Below are positions 9,050-14,746 of a stretch of 14,746 nucleotides of DNA, piece after piece. Within the stretch, counting starts at the first letter, position 1. Every line of letters starts with the position of its first letter. Location: assembly GCA_964554235.1 (NCBI GenBank), contig CAZKNU010000028.1:1-14746 (forward strand). The letters are read 5' to 3'. The DNA comes from an uncultured Methanosarcinales archaeon (GTDB lineage Archaea; Nanobdellota; Nanobdellia; Woesearchaeales; GW2011-AR9). The notes below the pieces were generated by a model. That model made no database searches. It was not told the origin of the DNA and saw nothing but the letters and a program-made list of their open reading frames with translations. The position numbers and the translations under genes were made by a program.

Positions 9050-11537
9050 TGGATAAATACTTGGTCACTACAGGTAATGTGTTTTGCAGGGCTGACCTTA
9101 ACAACTCTTGAATGTTTTCTCCTTCTACAGTTCCTAATTGTCCAACGTGTTGTGCTAATTCTGAGAACAGTTTTTGGTCTCCAAGGCGTGCAGCTGCCGC
9201 AGCTAAGTCAGAAATTTCTTCCGACCATGCACCCATTCTCTGGGCGTAAGCAGCGGCTTCCTCCTGTATTAATACCACTTTTCTTTCGTGCTCCTTTCTT
9301 GCTACTTCTTCATTCACCGCGTATTCAACACCTTTGGCAGCAACCTCAATCTTTTTGGCTTCTGCGAAAGCTTCTGCTTTACCAACCTCTTGCATTTTAC
9401 AAACTAGATTGCCTAACTCTACTGCGGCTATTTTAACATCTTTTTCTCGTTCAAATGCTGCTAAGGCAGTTTCTTCTGTTATCATTCTTAATTTGTTTGT
9501 ATCCTGTTGTATTTTTTGCGTTAACTCTGTTAGCGTATATCCCTGTTGCTCTAACTTCTTTGTAATCTCTGTTTCCTGTTCTTTTTGCCCCAATTCCAAT
9601 TGCTTCAACTGTTTATTAATCTCAATTTCTTGTTCTTTCTGTTCACGTTCTTTCTGCTTCAGGTGTGTAGCCATTTCAATTTCATTCACTTTGTCATCCA
9701 TGTTCATCTCTCTGATTTGTTGAGAGACCGCAAATCCTTGCTTCTTGCTACCCAATTCTTTTTCAAGTAGTTGCCCTTTTAGATCTAAGTCTAACCCCTT
9801 CATAGCTAATTCTTGTTCCCGTTGCAGTTTTACTTCGTTAAACGCTAATGCCATCCTCTCGTTGCTTAAGTTTAACCTAAATGCACTCTGTTCTGCTTCT
9901 GTCAGCAAGTCTGCCAGTTCATCATTTAGAACTGCTACGTTCAGCACTTCCAAATCGTATACTCTCATCCCATTCTCTTTAAAGAACCTTCCAGTCCTTT
10001 GCTCGCCTTCTTTTTTAACTCCTAAGATGGCATCTCTTACCAAATCTATACTATTAGGATAAAATTCGCTAAGTGAAATCTTTTTCACTGCTGACCTCAT
10101 GATTGAACTCAAATGCTCGCAAAGTAAGCCTACATAATCACTGACATCAAACCATTTCTTTGGCTCACCTTCAAAAGAAATTCTGTAAGAAACTTTAACA
10201 TCGAGCTGAATATGCTCCTTGGTTTCAACCGTTACAACATCAGAAACTTTATTACCTTCCTGCTGCAGGAAAACAGTTTCTAGTAGAAGTTTATCGCTCT
10301 TAGGAGTTCCCGTAGAAAACGTTAATTTCTCCAAACTTTCGGAATAATCAAGAATACACCTCTCTGGTCCTTGCACAACCTTTCTTTCTTTCTCTGAAAC
10401 AATCATTGTTGCGTGGTTAGGCGGAACGTAAACTGAAACGGCTTTGCCTTTATCACGGTTAACGACCCCATACAATACTTCAACTGTTTTATCTAAGCTT
10501 CTTTCTACAATGCTTTCTTTTATTGGATTAGGAAGAACGTTTTTAGGCCCCTTAATCGTCTTAATTTCACCGGTGTTCAGATTTCTAACATAAAGCCCTT
10601 CACTTTCAGCCAAGGATATCGGACTTATTTCTCCTCTAAGTTCTATATTTTCATTGGGAAAGAAAAGCCCGTCTTTACCTTCCACAAACAATTCTTGTCC
10701 TATTTTAAACGGTCCGGCACCAATGATATTAGATAAGGGGTCATTTTCTTCAACTTTAAAATCTTTAGTAACATACAAATGCAACCCTCTTTCTGGTTTT
10801 AGCGTCTGCGCCTGAAATATTGCTCTGCTGATCCCGCTAACAACTTTTTCAAGAAGAGTTTCATTGGGAGCTGGAATAACTTGATTAGGCCCAACAATAT
10901 ATTTTTTCTCGCCATTTGGCTCTAATAACACGCAGTATTCTCCAGCCATCAGTTTTACTGCTTTTCTTACAAAATTCCCGTCGTCTTGAGGAACTACTTC
11001 GAGACCGATTGTGGGCATGTAAAAACTTTTTTCTGAGCCTTTGATAATCATTTCAGTGCCAGTTGGAATTGCAGTATCATTCATAGTCGTGTTATTGTAA
11101 GCTCTTATAAGCAAGTATTCGTCTTCTCTTAATTTATGCCCGCTGATTACTTTTGCCGTCTGCCCGGGCCAAAGTGGAAACGTTTTTGGTCCTGGGACTA
11201 CTACTTTTTCACCATAGTTTAACTCTTGTGCTGCATTTATGCCGCGAGAATATTTAGCATCCGGAGAGGTAGTAGGATTTTCTAAGACAATATATTCTGA
11301 ATCTGCAGCAAACACAAAATTGTGCATTGCTTGTTCGTCAGCAAGGCCGACAGGCATTACTTTTCTGGTTTTAGAATCAATGTTTACTAATCTTTCCGTG
11401 TTGGACATACTAATCTTTGCCGGACCAACATAAAGGACAACATCTCCTTTAGTCATGTCCTGCACATAACAGAATTCATTTCCAGCTAAAAGAATATCTC
11501 TCTCCCTTTGATCTCTTATCTCCCTTTGCTCAGCCAT
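9015..11537 (-). CDS. major vault protein (MVP) homolog (840 aa)
   Basis: Full-length collinearity with eukaryotic MVP. The N-terminus has repeated vault-repeat motifs: VLYVGPAKI, VVPGPKTFPLWPGQ, YIVGPNQVIPAPNE and EGLYVRNLNTGEIKTIKGPKNVLP (compare human [24 protein letters not shown]). YVPPNHATMIV...KVVQGPE matches YRVPHNAAVQVYDY...RVVFGPE. The shoulder segment FDVSDYVGLLCEHLSSIMRSAV matches [22 protein letters not shown]. A long E/K/Q-rich coiled coil (cap-helix) follows, then a C-terminal cap-ring-like tail. Confidence 0.85.
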   Translation of the reverse strand: MAEQREIRDQRERDILLAGNEFCYVQDMTKGDVVLYVGPAKISMSNTERLVNIDSKTRKVMPVGLADEQAMHNFVFAADSEYIVLENPTTSPDAKYSRGINAAQELNYGEKVVVPGPKTFPLWPGQTAKVISGHKLREDEYLLIRAYNNTTMNDTAIPTGTEMIIKGSEKSFYMPTIGLEVVPQDDGNFVRKAVKLMAGEYCVLLEPNGEKKYIVGPNQVIPAPNETLLEKVVSGISRAIFQAQTLKPERGLHLYVTKDFKVEENDPLSNIIGAGPFKIGQELFVEGKDGLFFPNENIELRGEISPISLAESEGLYVRNLNTGEIKTIKGPKNVLPNPIKESIVERSLDKTVEVLYGVVNRDKGKAVSVYVPPNHATMIVSEKERKVVQGPERCILDYSESLEKLTFSTGTPKSDKLLLETVFLQQEGNKVSDVVTVETKEHIQLDVKVSYRISFEGEPKKWFDVSDYVGLLCEHLSSIMRSAVKKISLSEFYPNSIDLVRDAILGVKKEGEQRTGRFFKENGMRVYDLEVLNVAVLNDELADLLTEAEQSAFRLNLSNERMALAFNEVKLQREQELAMKGLDLDLKGQLLEKELGSKKQGFAVSQQIREMNMDDKVNEIEMATHLKQKEREQKEQEIEINKQLKQLELGQKEQETEITKKLEQQGYTLTELTQKIQQDTNKLRMITEETALAAFEREKDVKIAAVELGNLVCKMQEVGKAEAFAEAKKIEVAAKGVEYAVNEEVARKEHERKVVLIQEEAAAYAQRMGAWSEEISDLAAAAARLGDQKLFSELAQHVGQLGTVEGENIQELLRSALQNTLPVVTKYLSNALVDRSLGKP

Positions 11538-11544
11538 TTTTTAT

Positions 11545-11550
11545 ACCTCC
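11545..11550 (-). promoter_or_regulatory. Shine-Dalgarno-like GGAGGT 7 nt upstream of the MVP start codon
   Basis: The minus strand reads GGAGGT-ataaaaa-ATG. This is the only gene in the window with a clear SD, implying a leadered transcript, unlike the TATA-at-minus-25 genes. Confidence 0.5.
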
Positions 11551-11642
11551 AATACCATTAAATCCGACTTCTAATGCGAACAATTTAAACCTTTGGTTTA
11601 AACTATATAAACCGACTTAAAACTTTAAACTTCAAAGAAAGG

Positions 11643-11652
11643 TTTATATAAT
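11643..11652 (+). promoter_or_regulatory. TATA-like box TTTATATAAT for the AbrB/PhoU-like regulator gene
   Basis: The plus strand reads caaagaaagg-TTTATATAAT-(20 nt)-ATG. The purine-rich upstream flank is BRE-like. The architecture matches the kae1 and tgt promoters. Confidence 0.4.
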
Positions 11653-11672
11653 AATGGCTAAAACAGCGTGGT

Positions 11673-12590
11673 ATGGAACGAAAATTGGTTCAGCAAGGAA
11701 ATTCTACTTTAATGGTTTCCCTGCCGTACGAATGGGTAAAAAAGAACAGTCTGCGGAAAGGGGCGGAAGTTTCTATAAGAGAAGATGATAACAATATGGT
11801 GATTTTCACAAAAAGCGAACCTTCTAAAAAGAAAGCAGCAACTCTAACTTTAACTACTGATACTGAGCCTTCAGTCAGGACAGCAATCATTAGCGCTTAT
11901 CGCTCCGGATACGATTTAATCAGGATAAATTTTAAATGCAGGCCGGCGCATCAGCTTGTTGCGGAGATAATTAAAAATTATACTATCGGCTTGGAAATTA
12001 TTGAGCAGGGCAAAAACTTCCTGCTGCTGGAAAACATTACCGAGCCAGATGCCGGGCAATTTGAAGTGCTTTTTAACAAGATATTTTATAATATTTCTCT
12101 TTTGGCTGAGCATACTGAGCAGAGGCTGAAAGGGAAAGAAACACTTGACTGCAAAAGCATCATTTTTAAAATACATCAATACGACAATTTCTGCAGGCGG
12201 GTTGTTTCCAAGAAACCTTTTTCTTCAACCAAAGCAGGATTTTATTATGCTTTGTTTACTCTTATTACCCAGGGGCAAAGGGAGCTTTATCACTTAAACA
12301 GCTATTTAGATGAAAATAAAGTAATGCTTAAAGATTTCAGAGTGCTGGAGCATTTAAAAGAAGTGCTCAATTTATTGCGGGAGGCGCATGCCAGCAAAAA
12401 CCTTGCTTTGATTGAGCAAATTCATGATTTAAAGAAGGAATTCCGCCACACTGTTTTTTACCCGTCCATAGAAAAAGGCCGGAAAAAAGAAAATGTGGCG
12501 CTTTACCATATTGCTTCGTCTTTAAGGCTGTTTTATCTTGCCTGTAGCCCGGTTACTGGTTTGGTTATTGGTTTTAAAGAATCTTCCTAA
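11673..12590 (+). CDS. AbrB/SpoVT-domain plus PhoU-like helical domain transcriptional regulator (archaeal 'phosphate uptake regulator' family), 305 aa
   Basis: The N-terminus ERKLVQQGNSTLMVSLPYEWVKKNSLRKGAEVSI has the swapped-hairpin AbrB signature typical of the N-terminus of archaeal PhoU-family proteins. The remainder is a helical, PhoU-like repeat region. The gene is divergent from the MVP gene. Confidence 0.65.
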   Translation: MERKLVQQGNSTLMVSLPYEWVKKNSLRKGAEVSIREDDNNMVIFTKSEPSKKKAATLTLTTDTEPSVRTAIISAYRSGYDLIRINFKCRPAHQLVAEIIKNYTIGLEIIEQGKNFLLLENITEPDAGQFEVLFNKIFYNISLLAEHTEQRLKGKETLDCKSIIFKIHQYDNFCRRVVSKKPFSSTKAGFYYALFTLITQGQRELYHLNSYLDENKVMLKDFRVLEHLKEVLNLLREAHASKNLALIEQIHDLKKEFRHTVFYPSIEKGRKKENVALYHIASSLRLFYLACSPVTGLVIGFKESS

Positions 12591-14626
12591 GAAGCGGATG
12601 CTTCTATCCGTTGGTAAAGCTTTCTTATCCTCTCCCGTGCTGATAACGGAAACTCCTTTGCGCCGTAATCACCGTAAATGAATGCAGAACTTTTTTCATC
12701 TGCAGGATGAAACAGAAGGCAGTAATTATGCATTTCGTCTTCTGAATCAGAGTTATAATGAACAATAGTCGCCTGCCAGTTATCTATGCGGGCTGTGTAC
12801 GATTTTGCGCCTTCTTTTGTTACATAATCTTTGACCAGGTCATTTTCGTGTATGGAAGCAGGCATCCATTGCACTGCATCTCTTTCTACCCTGGACAACG
12901 CATTTTCAAGACTATAATCTCTTTCATTTGCAGAGTAATCTGTTTTAAGTTTAGAACCGGGCGTTTGTCTGTTTGCAGATGAATCAGTTTCAGAAGTATT
13001 TTCAAAATCAAGTTTTACTGAGATAGTTTCCTTATCCAGCCCCCTCATCTTATCAAGCTGTCCAACAACATAATTAATTAGTGCAAGTTTTTTAATCAGC
13101 CAACCATCTCCCCCTTTCTTTAAAATAGGTTCATGGCTATAACAAGTTTCTCCACTAAGATGGTTGTAAGCTTGGAAGATTTCCTTTCCATCTGTTAAGA
13201 CTATTATTTCCCTAACGTTATCATCACTCCAGTTCTGGCCCATCGTGCCATATCTAAAAGTAGACCTACTATCAATAACCCTTGCTTCAATCTCGCCTTC
13301 CTTGTATACGTAAGTTTCCGTGCATAATGAATGGTCGCAGGCATCAGAGCCGTGAGCATTGGGATTACCGGTATGGTGCGTTTCTCTAGACCAGTTGCCA
13401 AAAGCGGTCGTGAAAGAAGCGAATGCTTCAATTATAGTTGACAGGACAATTTCTTCGGGCGTGTTTGTTTCACGCAAAACTATGGGGTTATTATCATCTG
13501 CACCAAGCATGATTTCGTGCTCGTTTACAAAATCTTTAAGCAGCGTATTCTGTCCCTTAACTTTTGTTCCTATGATTTTATCTCTTTTTTTCCCAGATCT
13601 AAGCTCTGGGATACTCATCCAGACAAAAGGATTGATTCGATGTTCTCTATAAGTTTCAAAATTTTCTTTTAATTTGTAATGCAGCTTTTCGGCATCATCA
13701 TTGCTGAGGTGTTCGGGATTGAGAAAATCTTTTAAAGCAAATTTAAATTCAGGAAAATAAATCTTTTTTAATTTTTGCTGGACTTGTTCGCAGCATTCCC
13801 GCAAATTAATACTTTGGAGCAGTTTACCCTTATCGTCTATAACAATCCTAACTTGTTTTCCGTTAATATCAATTTTTTTTCCTTTATCATCTTCAACAAG
13901 AGCAAAATCAAACAGGTGCTCCCCGGTAAGGACGTAATACATTACTGCTCCTAATGTGTATAATTCGCTTCCCACGGTTACACGGCTTTCCTTTCCTGAA
14001 AGAAGTTCTTCCAAAATTTTGGGGTGGGTGTATTGGGTTCCTCCTCTTGTTGGCAGAACTTTGCTTTCCACATCATCCATGCTAGCAGCAAATTGAAAAT
14101 CTATAAGTTTAACTTTTCCATCAATTCCAATCAAAAAATTAGAAGGTTTTAAATCGCGATGCAACATTTTTTTCTCAAGATGCAAGTAACGCAAGGCTTC
14201 TGTAGCCTGCAAAAGAAGGTCCAGAAACTTATCTTGGTTAAGAACTGGCCCAAACAATTCTACATGTTGCTGAAGGCTCTGGGCATCAAGAAATTCTTCT
14301 ACAGTAATAATGCTGCTTTTATATTCATGGGTATCTAATATTTGTACAATGTTGGGGTGATTAAGTAATTTTAGTCTTTCCACTTCTTTCCTATTTGGAT
14401 CCCCGCGGGAAAGATTTATTCTTGCCTGCACCGACGGTTCTTCTAGTCCTATCAAACCTTTGGGGACTTTAATGATAACTCTTTTCTGGCGCCGGTCTTG
14501 TTCAATATGAAATGCCTCGTAAACCTCCCGATGCTTGCCTTCACCAATTTTTCTGCCCGGGAAATATCTTTTGCTGATAAGAAAATCAGTTAATTCTTGG
14601 TCTGGAAATAGATTTGGGTGTTCCAT
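12587..14626 (-). CDS. eukaryotic-like Ser/Thr protein kinase with a roughly 350-aa uncharacterised C-terminal domain (679 aa)
   Basis: Hanks-type motifs are present: a degenerate Gly-loop KIGEGKHREVY, VIIKV (VAIK-like lysine), HRDLKPSNFLI (catalytic loop), DFQFA (DFG variant) and GTQYTHPKILEE (APE region). The C-terminal region (about aa 330-679; 12590-13639) has no recognisable family and contains the His/Cys cluster HHTGNPNAHGSDACDHSLC. The stop codon overlaps the regulator's stop convergently at 12587-12590. Confidence 0.8.
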   Translation of the reverse strand: MEHPNLFPDQELTDFLISKRYFPGRKIGEGKHREVYEAFHIEQDRRQKRVIIKVPKGLIGLEEPSVQARINLSRGDPNRKEVERLKLLNHPNIVQILDTHEYKSSIITVEEFLDAQSLQQHVELFGPVLNQDKFLDLLLQATEALRYLHLEKKMLHRDLKPSNFLIGIDGKVKLIDFQFAASMDDVESKVLPTRGGTQYTHPKILEELLSGKESRVTVGSELYTLGAVMYYVLTGEHLFDFALVEDDKGKKIDINGKQVRIVIDDKGKLLQSINLRECCEQVQQKLKKIYFPEFKFALKDFLNPEHLSNDDAEKLHYKLKENFETYREHRINPFVWMSIPELRSGKKRDKIIGTKVKGQNTLLKDFVNEHEIMLGADDNNPIVLRETNTPEEIVLSTIIEAFASFTTAFGNWSRETHHTGNPNAHGSDACDHSLCTETYVYKEGEIEARVIDSRSTFRYGTMGQNWSDDNVREIIVLTDGKEIFQAYNHLSGETCYSHEPILKKGGDGWLIKKLALINYVVGQLDKMRGLDKETISVKLDFENTSETDSSANRQTPGSKLKTDYSANERDYSLENALSRVERDAVQWMPASIHENDLVKDYVTKEGAKSYTARIDNWQATIVHYNSDSEDEMHNYCLLFHPADEKSSAFIYGDYGAKEFPLSARERIRKLYQRIEASAS

Positions 14627-14746
14627 TTATTTCTCAACACACTAAACCCCAGAAATAATAAATCTATTTTTACTTACTGCTAGCCGCCTGCCTTTCCAAA
14701 TCTCTTTTCTTAGAAATGGCTGCGCTCTTACCCGAGCATAAAGCAG

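Follow-up and report, generated by a model that had tools for sequence, protein, structure and literature searches.

One target of the Hanks kinases YabT, PrkC, and PrkD in Bacillus subtilis is AbrB, whose DNA binding is inhibited by the phosphorylation (PMC4837961). The kinase described here, encoded in a 14,746-nt stretch of archaeal DNA (the whole of which is hereafter called the window), shares with PknB and with PrkC/YabT its catalytic fold and residues, as well as the arrangement of an N-terminal kinase followed by a C-terminal non-catalytic module. Unlike these enzymes, it is archaeal, shows no transmembrane helix when examined by eye, carries no PASTA or other known sensor domain, has DFQ in place of DFG, and bears C-terminal modules whose relatives are a handful of metagenomic archaeal proteins. 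Its likeness to the PD-T4-6 and MADS Mad6 kinases is limited to the kinase domain, for which theirs are the best-scoring PADLOC models. With eukaryotic vault-associated proteins and kinases that phosphorylate the major vault protein (MVP) it has only an idea in common, namely a kinase gene located two genes from an MVP homolog; its tail has no sequence or fold similarity to the eukaryotic vault-associated proteins, and the adjacency to MVP seen here is not conserved. We regard the kinase as ordinary in kind, a Hanks kinase with a lineage-specific tail, and as novel only as a domain family.

Kinase Gene and Genomic Placement

The features of the locus are collected in Table 1. A sequence-only reading of this DNA had drawn attention to positions 12590-13639, which correspond exactly to aa 330-679 of a genuine open reading frame of 679 aa; the identical full protein is also found on ENA contig ERZ27284377 k119_19049. 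The same reading had assigned the N-terminal part to the Hanks-type kinases, and our searches agree: Pfam Pkinase (PF00069) matched aa 24-254 (E 3.4e-31), its 109 bits exceeding the gathering score of 31.7, and a PDB sequence search returned M. tuberculosis PknB as the nearest solved relative of the kinase domain (E 4e-18). The motifs it had read, HRDLKPSNFLI and DFQFA, lie at aa 156-166 and aa 176-180, respectively. The catalytic residues K53 (the VAIK Lys), E83 (the alphaC Glu), D158 (HRD), N163, and D176 (DFQ) are all present in the sequence and are invariant in the three-sequence alignment A2. The domain departs from the usual pattern in having DFQ for DFG and in a Gly-rich loop that reads GEGKHR, with Arg replacing the third glycine; given these two replacements, kinase activity is assumed here from the sequence. 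When hydrophobic stretches were judged by eye, no transmembrane segment was seen in the 679 residues, for which reason a transmembrane sensor kinase was rejected, and the kinase is best read as soluble and cytoplasmic. A RIO/Bud32-type kinase was likewise rejected because of marginal scores in the NCBIfam profile scan.

Table 1. Features of the kinase locus, with positions in the window.
Feature	Position	Strand	Evidence or remark
Major-vault-protein homolog, 840 aa	9015..11537	(-)	MVP_shoulder and PDB MVP match
Divergent intergenic region, regulator/MVP	11538..11672	(.)	Carries palindrome GTTTAAAC
Palindrome GTTTAAAC, inside TTTAAACC-TTT-GGTTTAAAC	11596-11603		Candidate operator
AbrB/SpoVT-type regulator, 305 aa, convergent to kinase	11673..12590	(+)	PF04014
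Complete kinase gene, 679 aa and stop	12587..14626	(-)	ORF list and translation
Domain B, aa ~575-679, small alpha+beta module	12590..12904	(-)	Alignment A4, HMM, AF2
Low-complexity Ser/Thr/Asp/Asn-rich linker, aa 546-574	12905..12991	(-)	Alignment A2
Domain A, aa ~385-545, unannotated alpha/beta module	12992..13474	(-)	phmmer, alignments A1/A5, HMM, AF2
His/Cys cluster HHTGNPNAHGSDACDHSLC, aa 417-435	13322..13378	(-)	Sequence and column-by-column check
Linker kinase-to-domain A, aa 330-384	13475..13639	(-)	Alignments A2/A3, AF2 model 1
Hanks-type Ser/Thr kinase domain with subfamily-specific C-lobe extension, aa 1-329	13640..14626	(-)	Pfam Pkinase, PknB match
Ribosomal protein S7, 3' end	14670..14746	(-)	Sequence read

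The kinase subfamily comprises six close clusters at 180-336 bits, after which scores drop to 79 bits. Scanning the GTDB species-representative genomes with the kinase alignment returned only three unrelated bacterial kinases, and no reference genome therefore carries an ortholog matching the alignment patterns. The subfamily is best described as small and confined to metagenome-derived archaeal contigs, and the uncultured host archaeon is probably a member of the DPANN.

The kinase gene starts 43 nt after the end of S7, and the two share a strand. S7 also precedes the kinase in loci L003 (78% identity) and L004, and the gene order in L001 is rpoH-rpoB-rpoA-L30e-NusA-S12-S7-kinase. Neither the Rfam nor the tRNA scan gave a hit in the window. 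The placement of the kinase gene bears on whether the protein might be an antiviral defense kinase of the PD-T4-6 or Stk2 type, in which variable C-terminal modules would recognize viral proteins and lead to phosphorylation of a host target. The top PADLOC matches were mad6 (E 4e-34) and many PD-T4-6 models, but none extends beyond aa 13-343, the generic kinase domain, and in NCBIfam the Mad6 model scored 87.9 bits, far below its cut-off of 460. In favor of such a role, close relatives differ in their C-terminal architecture (domains A and B, A only, A with another tail, or a TM-like tail), and toxin-antitoxin genes (HepT-MNT, PIN-RHH) are found in or beside the L008-11 locus; however, the kinase directly follows the RNA polymerase/S12-S7 housekeeping cluster in three lineages and its regulator is vertically conserved, which is unlike the pattern of defense islands. 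Neither a full-length match above cut-off nor a defense-island context, which together would mark PD-T4-6/Mad6 membership, was found, and we consider a defense role highly improbable.

Architecture of the C-Terminal Tail

The tail of ~350 aa consists of two modules, domain A and domain B, and is a lineage-specific extension. It had been described as belonging to no recognizable family, which our searches bear out: aa 330-679 gave no significant match to Pfam, NCBIfam, PHROGs, or PADLOC profiles (all PADLOC matches falling within the kinase-domain segment given above), and nothing meaningful was found among PDB sequences with the tail, the domain-A profile, or the domain-B profile, nor among PDB/BFVD folds. 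The C-terminal 350 aa matched none of 5.8e9 protein clusters in a word-indexed search, and an exhaustive phmmer search of 1.84e9 representative proteins recovered only four relatives of the tail. The tail had also been called W/Y-rich, which is only mildly true, with W and Y making up 6.0% of the tail vs. 3.3% of the kinase domain and 4.3% of the other window proteins. No duplication was detectable between domains A and B (BLASTP E 0.31).

Of the two linkers, the one joining the kinase to domain A shows conservation only in the closest ortholog and is weakly conserved in alignments A2/A3; its assignment also draws on AF2 model 1, where most of residues 1-60 have a pLDDT under 50. The low-complexity linker that follows domain A is partly deleted in ortholog P0001 and has a pLDDT of 32-38 in AF2 model 2. 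Domain B is 52% identical between this kinase and P0001 (alignment A4), and these are the only two of the 81 proteins retrieved that its HMM matches; with a pLDDT of ~45-72 its predicted fold is uncertain. Domain B is best read as a recent add-on common to one ortholog.

For domain A, two independent AF2 runs from two alignments gave matching topologies with a core pLDDT of ~75-93, in which an N-terminal helix leads into a meander of five long antiparallel strands, with a short strand and then a C-terminal helix at the end. Residues conserved in at least seven of eight sequences include G410, G426-S427-D428, Y439, G460-T461, W466, R472, A486, and W509. Among the retrieved proteins, the domain-A HMM recognized six of the seven full-length members of the kinase subfamily and two stand-alone proteins, and none of ~65 other kinases; the profile detects the domain in P0005, P0009, and P0007, and in the word-indexed protein-cluster search it returned only the two stand-alone proteins. 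The eight domain-A sequences gave noise only when scanned against Pfam at E up to 5, and comparison of the modeled folds with PDB/BFVD gave a best E of 0.018, a TM of ~0.2, 5-13% identity, and large RMSD. There is a topological resemblance to actin capping protein CapZ alpha/beta and to p32/MAM33-like proteins, which is not evidence of homology. Taken together, domain A is best read as an autonomous alpha/beta module that also exists on its own, and as regulatory or partner-binding in role.

In the models, S427, D428, and T461, with Y439, W466, and R472 nearby in sequence, would be located in or beside the loops connecting strands 1 and 2 and strands 3 and 4. Since both loops are predicted at the same edge of the meander sheet, they may form one putative binding site, placed there by topology alone, whose occupant, either a small ligand or a partner protein, would control or target the kinase. 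The suggestion made in the sequence-only reading that the tail is a sensor is possible for a cytoplasmic ligand or partner. In its strictest form, domain A would bind a metabolite or nucleotide and switch the kinase allosterically, without the regulator described below. Three points would suit such a small-molecule sensor: conserved polar residues (S, D, T, R, Y, W) are modeled as a group in neighboring loops of a stable sheet, domain A exists in stand-alone form, and Hanks kinases commonly carry sensor domains at their C-termini. We judge this possibility to be unlikely, though not negligible.

A metal site had been proposed within the tail at HHTGNPNAHGSDACDHSLC, a stretch of domain A that falls in the loop region joining strands 1 and 2 and surrounds the conserved G-S-D motif. 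A metal- or redox-sensing domain built on this cluster would fit the six His/Cys residues found within 19 residues of this kinase (H417, H418, H425, C430, H432, and C435), and in other members a His is often found a few residues ahead of G-S-D, at varying positions. None of the six columns is conserved over eight family members, however, whereas a zinc-finger-like site would be expected to keep three or four Cys/His ligands from one homolog to the next; the closest ortholog, 59% identical, retains only H417 and C435, P0002 is devoid of His and Cys in the HHTGNPNAHGSDACDHSLC stretch, and the loop is modeled by AF2 at lower confidence. Non-conservation largely refutes metal or redox sensing through this cluster, and we find it hardly credible.

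Conserved Pairing with an AbrB-Type Regulator

The gene order had been correctly read, with the regulator on the opposite strand between the kinase and the MVP homolog. The stop codon of the regulator overlaps that of the kinase by 4 nt, and its N-terminal swapped-hairpin domain (PF04014) was matched with 35.4 bits (E 1e-8; gathering score 24.7), while the C-terminal ~250 aa had no match, PhoU included. A regulator of this type, ~300 aa long and convergent to the kinase, was present in all five lineages (5/5), the orthologs being those in L003, L004, L008-11, and L012-14 at 38-69% identity, and PF04014 exceeded its gathering score in each of five regulator orthologs. The pairing persists despite differing upstream genes and the insertion of a HepT-MNT pair between the two. 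Kinase and regulator form a conserved gene pair.

The intergenic region between the regulator and the divergent MVP homolog contains the palindrome GTTTAAAC, which occurs once in the whole window. L003 and L008-11 have this 8-mer ahead of the regulator, whereas L012-14 have it ahead of the kinase; in L012 it is absent upstream of the regulator. In ~69 kb of non-redundant archaeal loci it was found six times, four times in intergenic regions upstream of the regulator and once upstream of a kinase gene, a count to be read with the fact that the motif was chosen after inspection of these same intergenic regions. This distribution is consistent with GTTTAAAC acting as an operator of the regulator; as it contains TTTAAA, another reading is that of an ordinary archaeal TATA box in an AT-rich sequence.

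The MVP Homolog Is a Neighbor

The MVP homolog matched MVP_shoulder (PF11978, E 5e-30) and, weakly, Vault_3/4, and its aa 142-579 matched rat and human MVP in the PDB (E 6e-25). The sequence-only reading had linked the kinase to this gene, proposing a vault-binding module or a kinase acting on MVP. An intact MVP adjoins the kinase locus only in this window and in none of the other kinase loci. Among the nearby genes of six informative lineages, one (the window) has an intact MVP, one (L002) has a remnant, and four have none, namely L003, L008-11, L012-14, and the P0004 contig, where contigs rather than whole genomes were examined. Domain A is present in all four of these, and the partner found in 5/5 lineages is the regulator, so that a link to MVP is unsupported as a general property. 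In the loci compared, the MVP homolog is a neighbor of the kinase and not its conserved partner.

The exception of interest is L002, a 2.1-kb contig in which a stand-alone domain A, only ~25% identical, precedes what is left of the N-termini of AbrB and MVP. Within 150 bp after domain A come 24 aa of an AbrB N-terminus (16/24 identical) and an ORF of 37 aa. The first 30 aa of this ORF match the N-terminus of MVP in an ungapped alignment, with a core of 16/20 identical residues (tblastn E 2e-5). These fragments suggest that the trio of kinase, regulator, and MVP was adjacent in more than one lineage. Searches of JGI metagenome contigs with the MVP protein or a degenerate DNA pattern of its N-terminal motif, and of IMG/VR with MVP, returned nothing. 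Both the contiguity of the three genes in the window and the L002 fragments of all three would fit a single functional locus in which the MVP homolog is a docking site for domain A and/or B or a substrate of the kinase; set against the MVP-free loci above, such a vault-linked kinase seems quite unlikely. It is very unlikely that the trio constitutes an ancient archaeal circuit controlling a vault-like particle, with domain A and/or B recognizing the particle; were it so, the L002 fragments would be a decayed copy of that circuit.

Proposed Function and Implications

The reading we tentatively favor, at somewhat less than an even chance, is that of a kinase/AbrB-regulator signaling pair in which domain A is regulatory or partner-binding, the regulator is phosphorylated, and any link to MVP is indirect. 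The kinase would work together with the convergently encoded DNA-binding regulator and would phosphorylate it, altering its binding to a GTTTAAAC-type operator. We infer this phosphorylation, gene adjacency by itself being no proof of a kinase-substrate relation. In this genome the candidate operator would lie in the promoter region common to the regulator and the MVP homolog, and any MVP link would thus be transcriptional and indirect.

Domain A is a definable, previously unannotated family, with a confident core model and a signature of G-S-D, Y, G-T, and W. The kinase/AbrB-regulator pair may represent a simple Ser/Thr signaling module in small-genome archaea, whose regulation is poorly understood. 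Additionally, one of the few archaeal MVP homologs has a promoter region in common with the regulator in this genome, which may offer a handle on the control of an archaeal vault-like gene, although a direct kinase-MVP link is unsupported.

Kinase and Catalytic Domain

The interval 12590-13639, singled out by the sequence-only reading, is exactly residues 330-679 (the tail) of a 679-residue ORF, here called the kinase. Pfam Pkinase matched its residues 24-254 (E 3.4e-31; 109 bits, cut-off 31.7), the closest solved structure was M. tuberculosis PknB (E 4e-18), and the catalytic residues Lys53, Glu83, Asp158, Asn163 and Asp176 are present, and invariant in the closest relatives; the kinase carries Gln in place of the DFG glycine and Arg in place of the third P-loop glycine. 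Judged by profile and catalytic residues, it belongs to the Hanks kinases. The motifs read from the DNA were found as described (HRDLKPSNFLI, residues 156-166; DFQFA, 176-180; HHTGNPNAHGSDACDHSLC, 417-435), and annotation and domain matches agreed with the placement then given to the neighboring genes, an AbrB-type regulator and a major vault protein (MVP) homolog.

Features of the window and of related loci
Feature	Sequence	Position	Strand	Length	Remarks
GyrB ORF	window	492-3716	-	1074 aa	large insertion between ...GGCFSKDT... and ...VFVHNS...
Nucleotidyltransferase-like ORF	window	7112-7669	-	185 aa	GTEDIDL motif; weak PADLOC match PDC-M21B, E 7e-5
Small ORF	window	7892-8224	-	110 aa	downstream of MVP
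Small ORF	window	8555-9049	-	164 aa	downstream of MVP; overlaps MVP stop
MVP homolog	window	9015-11537	-	840 aa	MVP_shoulder E 5e-30; rat/human MVP E 6e-25 over aa 142-579
Palindrome GTTTAAAC	window	11596-11603			in 135-bp regulator/MVP intergenic region
Regulator	window	11673-12590	+	305 aa	AbrB/SpoVT N-terminal domain, PF04014, E 1e-8
Kinase	window	12587-14626	-	679 aa
Domain A	kinase	aa ~385-545
Domain B	kinase	aa ~575-679			behind low-complexity linker
End of RNA polymerase/ribosomal protein cluster, with 43-nt gap to kinase	window	14627-14746
Same cluster	L001	1-10000
Stand-alone domain A (P0003) and two fragments	L002	1334-2104
Regulator-like fragment	L002	1920-1994		24 aa	MKRKLVEQGQCTLMVSLPKSWGRK
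MVP-like ORF	L002	1991-2104		37 aa	core ERDVILAGNEFAYVQDMTK
GTTTAAAC, two occurrences	L003	3498-3532			upstream of regulator
HepT-MNT pair	L008	11399-12039			also in L009-L011
GTTTAAAC	L008	13025-13050			upstream of regulator
GTTTAAAC	L012	3969-3976			80 bp upstream of kinase

In a 20-kb ENA contig with the exact kinase (L001), the gene order is rpoH-rpoB''-rpoB'-rpoA'-rpoA''-L30e-NusA-S12-S7-kinase, and 43 nt separate S7 from the kinase both there and in the window. The kinase closes this archaeal cluster in three lineages, and its conserved placement after S12-S7, a position occupied by EF-2 in many archaea, hints that it could be transcribed together with housekeeping genes. The split rpoB and rpoA of the upstream cluster, the "Nanoarchaeota archaeon" label of one kinase subfamily member (P0008) and the recovery of relatives from 0.1-um groundwater filtrates together suggest that the source is an ultra-small archaeon of DPANN type. 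The window is an entire NCBI contig of 14,746 bp; its proteins are singletons among ~15 billion sequences, and the patterns used found no kinase ortholog among 185,579 GTDB species representatives. Elsewhere in the window, the insertion in the GyrB ORF has the look of an intein.

A Rare Two-Module C-Terminal Half

As the first reading had supposed, the C-terminal half has no recognizable family: Pfam, NCBIfam, PHROGs and PDB sequence searches all returned no match. Searched exhaustively with phmmer, 1.84e9 representative proteins yielded only four relatives of the tail, namely a full-length ortholog (P0001; tail identity 58%), a kinase whose tail ends after the first module (P0002) and two stand-alone proteins (P0003, 177 aa; P0004, 155 aa), and the truncated and stand-alone forms divide the tail into two modules, domains A and B. 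A profile HMM made from five sequences of domain A added P0005 (E 1.5e-25), P0009 (9e-16) and the insertion-interrupted P0007 (1e-8), and did not find the domain in any other kinase retrieved; since the exhaustive search was single-sequence, the family perhaps extends a little beyond these eight sequences. The kinase subfamily is itself very small (in a search with the kinase domain, six clusters at 180-336 bits, the next at 79 bits), and six of its seven full-length members have domain A, the seventh (P0006) having a TM-like tail in its place. By alignment and HMM, domain B is limited to the window kinase and P0001, with no detectable similarity to domain A that would mark it as a duplicate.

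The protein falls outside every described C-terminal domain family, outside the zinc-binding domains and outside the defense-kinase families, and the architecture is a known kinase joined to an unannotated, extremely rare module. Lineage-specific tails are common in prokaryotic kinases, so an unusual one would not surprise a specialist. PADLOC matches are confined to the kinase domain and the genomic context is housekeeping, for which reasons we rate a PD-T4-6-like defense kinase as very unlikely.

AlphaFold2 modeled domain A identically in two runs (five and eight sequences; core pLDDT ~75-93) as a long helix, a meander of five long antiparallel strands, a short strand and a C-terminal helix, while domain B reached a pLDDT of only ~45-72, too low for its model to be interpreted. 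Residues kept in at least seven of the eight aligned domain-A sequences include G410, G426, S427, D428, Y439, G460, T461, W466, R472, A486 and W509. The His/Cys cluster is not supported as a conserved metal site, as none of its six His/Cys is conserved in this alignment: the seven homologs, P0001 first, have H, S, S, H, R, Y, P at H417; C in P0001 and otherwise gaps at H418; R, K, R, R, S, W, R at H425; Y, V, I, Y, I, I, I at C430; S, Q, S, S, S, T, K at H432; and C, G, N, S, T, S, G at C435. Even the ortholog at 59% identity retains only H417 and C435. By the alignment, the cluster is a lineage-specific decoration surrounding the actual motif, G-S-D, and a metal or redox sensor is extremely improbable. 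In the model the strand1-strand2 loop holds G-S-D and the strand3-strand4 turn holds G-T...W; because the meander puts both loops at one sheet edge, domain A may present a single conserved polar site.

A Convergent Regulator as the Conserved Partner

Genomic context was compared over five kinase lineages, and the kinase is paired with a convergent AbrB-type regulator in all five, which identifies this pair as the conserved unit.

Gene order in the five kinase lineages
Loci	Kinase	Order
window, L001	window kinase	S12-S7-kinase, convergent regulator, MVP
L003	P0001	S7 (78% identical)-kinase, convergent regulator, 92-aa gene, unrelated 397-aa gene
L004	P0002	rpoA''-L30e-NusA-S12-S7-kinase, convergent regulator, contig end
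L008-11	P0009	upstream genes differ; kinase, HepT-MNT pair, convergent regulator, PIN
L012-14	P0007	kinase, convergent regulator, deoxyhypusine synthase

The regulator orthologs share 38-69% identity and all have the AbrB domain. Their C-terminal part of ~250 residues (aa 55-305 in the window) is also well conserved over the five lineages, with YDNFCRR and ELYHLN invariant, and had no Pfam family or PDB sequence match, PhoU included. The pair outlasts the insertion of the HepT-MNT toxin-antitoxin genes, and in L008 a PIN/RHH pair sits just past the regulator. L002, L008 and L015 have NTP_transf_2 genes resembling the 185-aa window ORF close to the kinase.

The palindrome GTTTAAAC is a candidate operator of the regulator. 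The window has a single copy of it, within TTTAAACC-TTT-GGTTTAAAC; both L003 occurrences and one of two in L008-11 (there in a perfect 11-nt palindrome) are upstream of the regulator, and the sole L012-14 occurrence precedes the kinase. Five of six non-redundant occurrences, from four lineages, thus fall in kinase/regulator promoter regions, the motif having been chosen after viewing those regions, and it is nearly absent elsewhere in the kinase loci. Alternatively, it might be TATA-box-like, as TTTAAA resembles the archaeal TATA box.

We tentatively favor, at somewhat under even chances, a soluble signaling kinase working together with the regulator; most likely it would phosphorylate the regulator and so alter operator binding, with domain A serving for input or docking. 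A precedent exists in B. subtilis, whose AbrB is phosphorylated by three Hanks kinases (YabT, PrkC and PrkD), which inhibits its DNA binding (PMC4837961). That the kinase is instead an independent small-molecule sensor is unlikely.

The MVP Homolog and Its Link to the Kinase

The suggested association of the tail with MVP did not extend across lineages: among the five, an intact MVP adjoins the kinase-regulator pair only in the window (the L004 contig ends after the regulator). The L003 397-aa gene did not match MVP (BLASTP E 0.33) and had no Pfam hit, MVP is absent within 10 kb of the kinase locus in L008-11, and the 18-kb contig encoding stand-alone P0004 had no MVP Pfam hit. The link is not dismissed outright because of L002, a 2.1-kb contig in which stand-alone domain A is followed within 150 bp by two gene fragments. 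The first is identical to the regulator N-terminus at 16 of 24 residues; the second overlaps its stop, and its first 30 residues align gap-free to the MVP N-terminus (16/20 identical in the core; tblastn E 2e-5). By these similarities, L002 resembles what decay and rearrangement would leave of the kinase-regulator-MVP neighborhood in a distant lineage. Direct binding or phosphorylation of the vault by the kinase is nonetheless quite unlikely. Under the favored kinase-regulator reading, the kinase may influence MVP expression indirectly, since regulator and MVP have a common candidate operator region here.

The 164-aa and 110-aa ORFs, on the MVP strand, matched no family and have no equivalent elsewhere among the loci compared; possibly they are partners of MVP in one operon. 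The MVP homolog forms a singleton among the 15 billion proteins of the collection, and JGI metagenome and IMG/VR scans gave no close relatives. A 2019 preprint did not find MVP in archaea, and the archaeal homologs found in publications to date all come from the Asgard group (PMC12962969). An MVP homolog in what is probably a DPANN archaeon is arguably more remarkable than the kinase, and is a finding separate from it.
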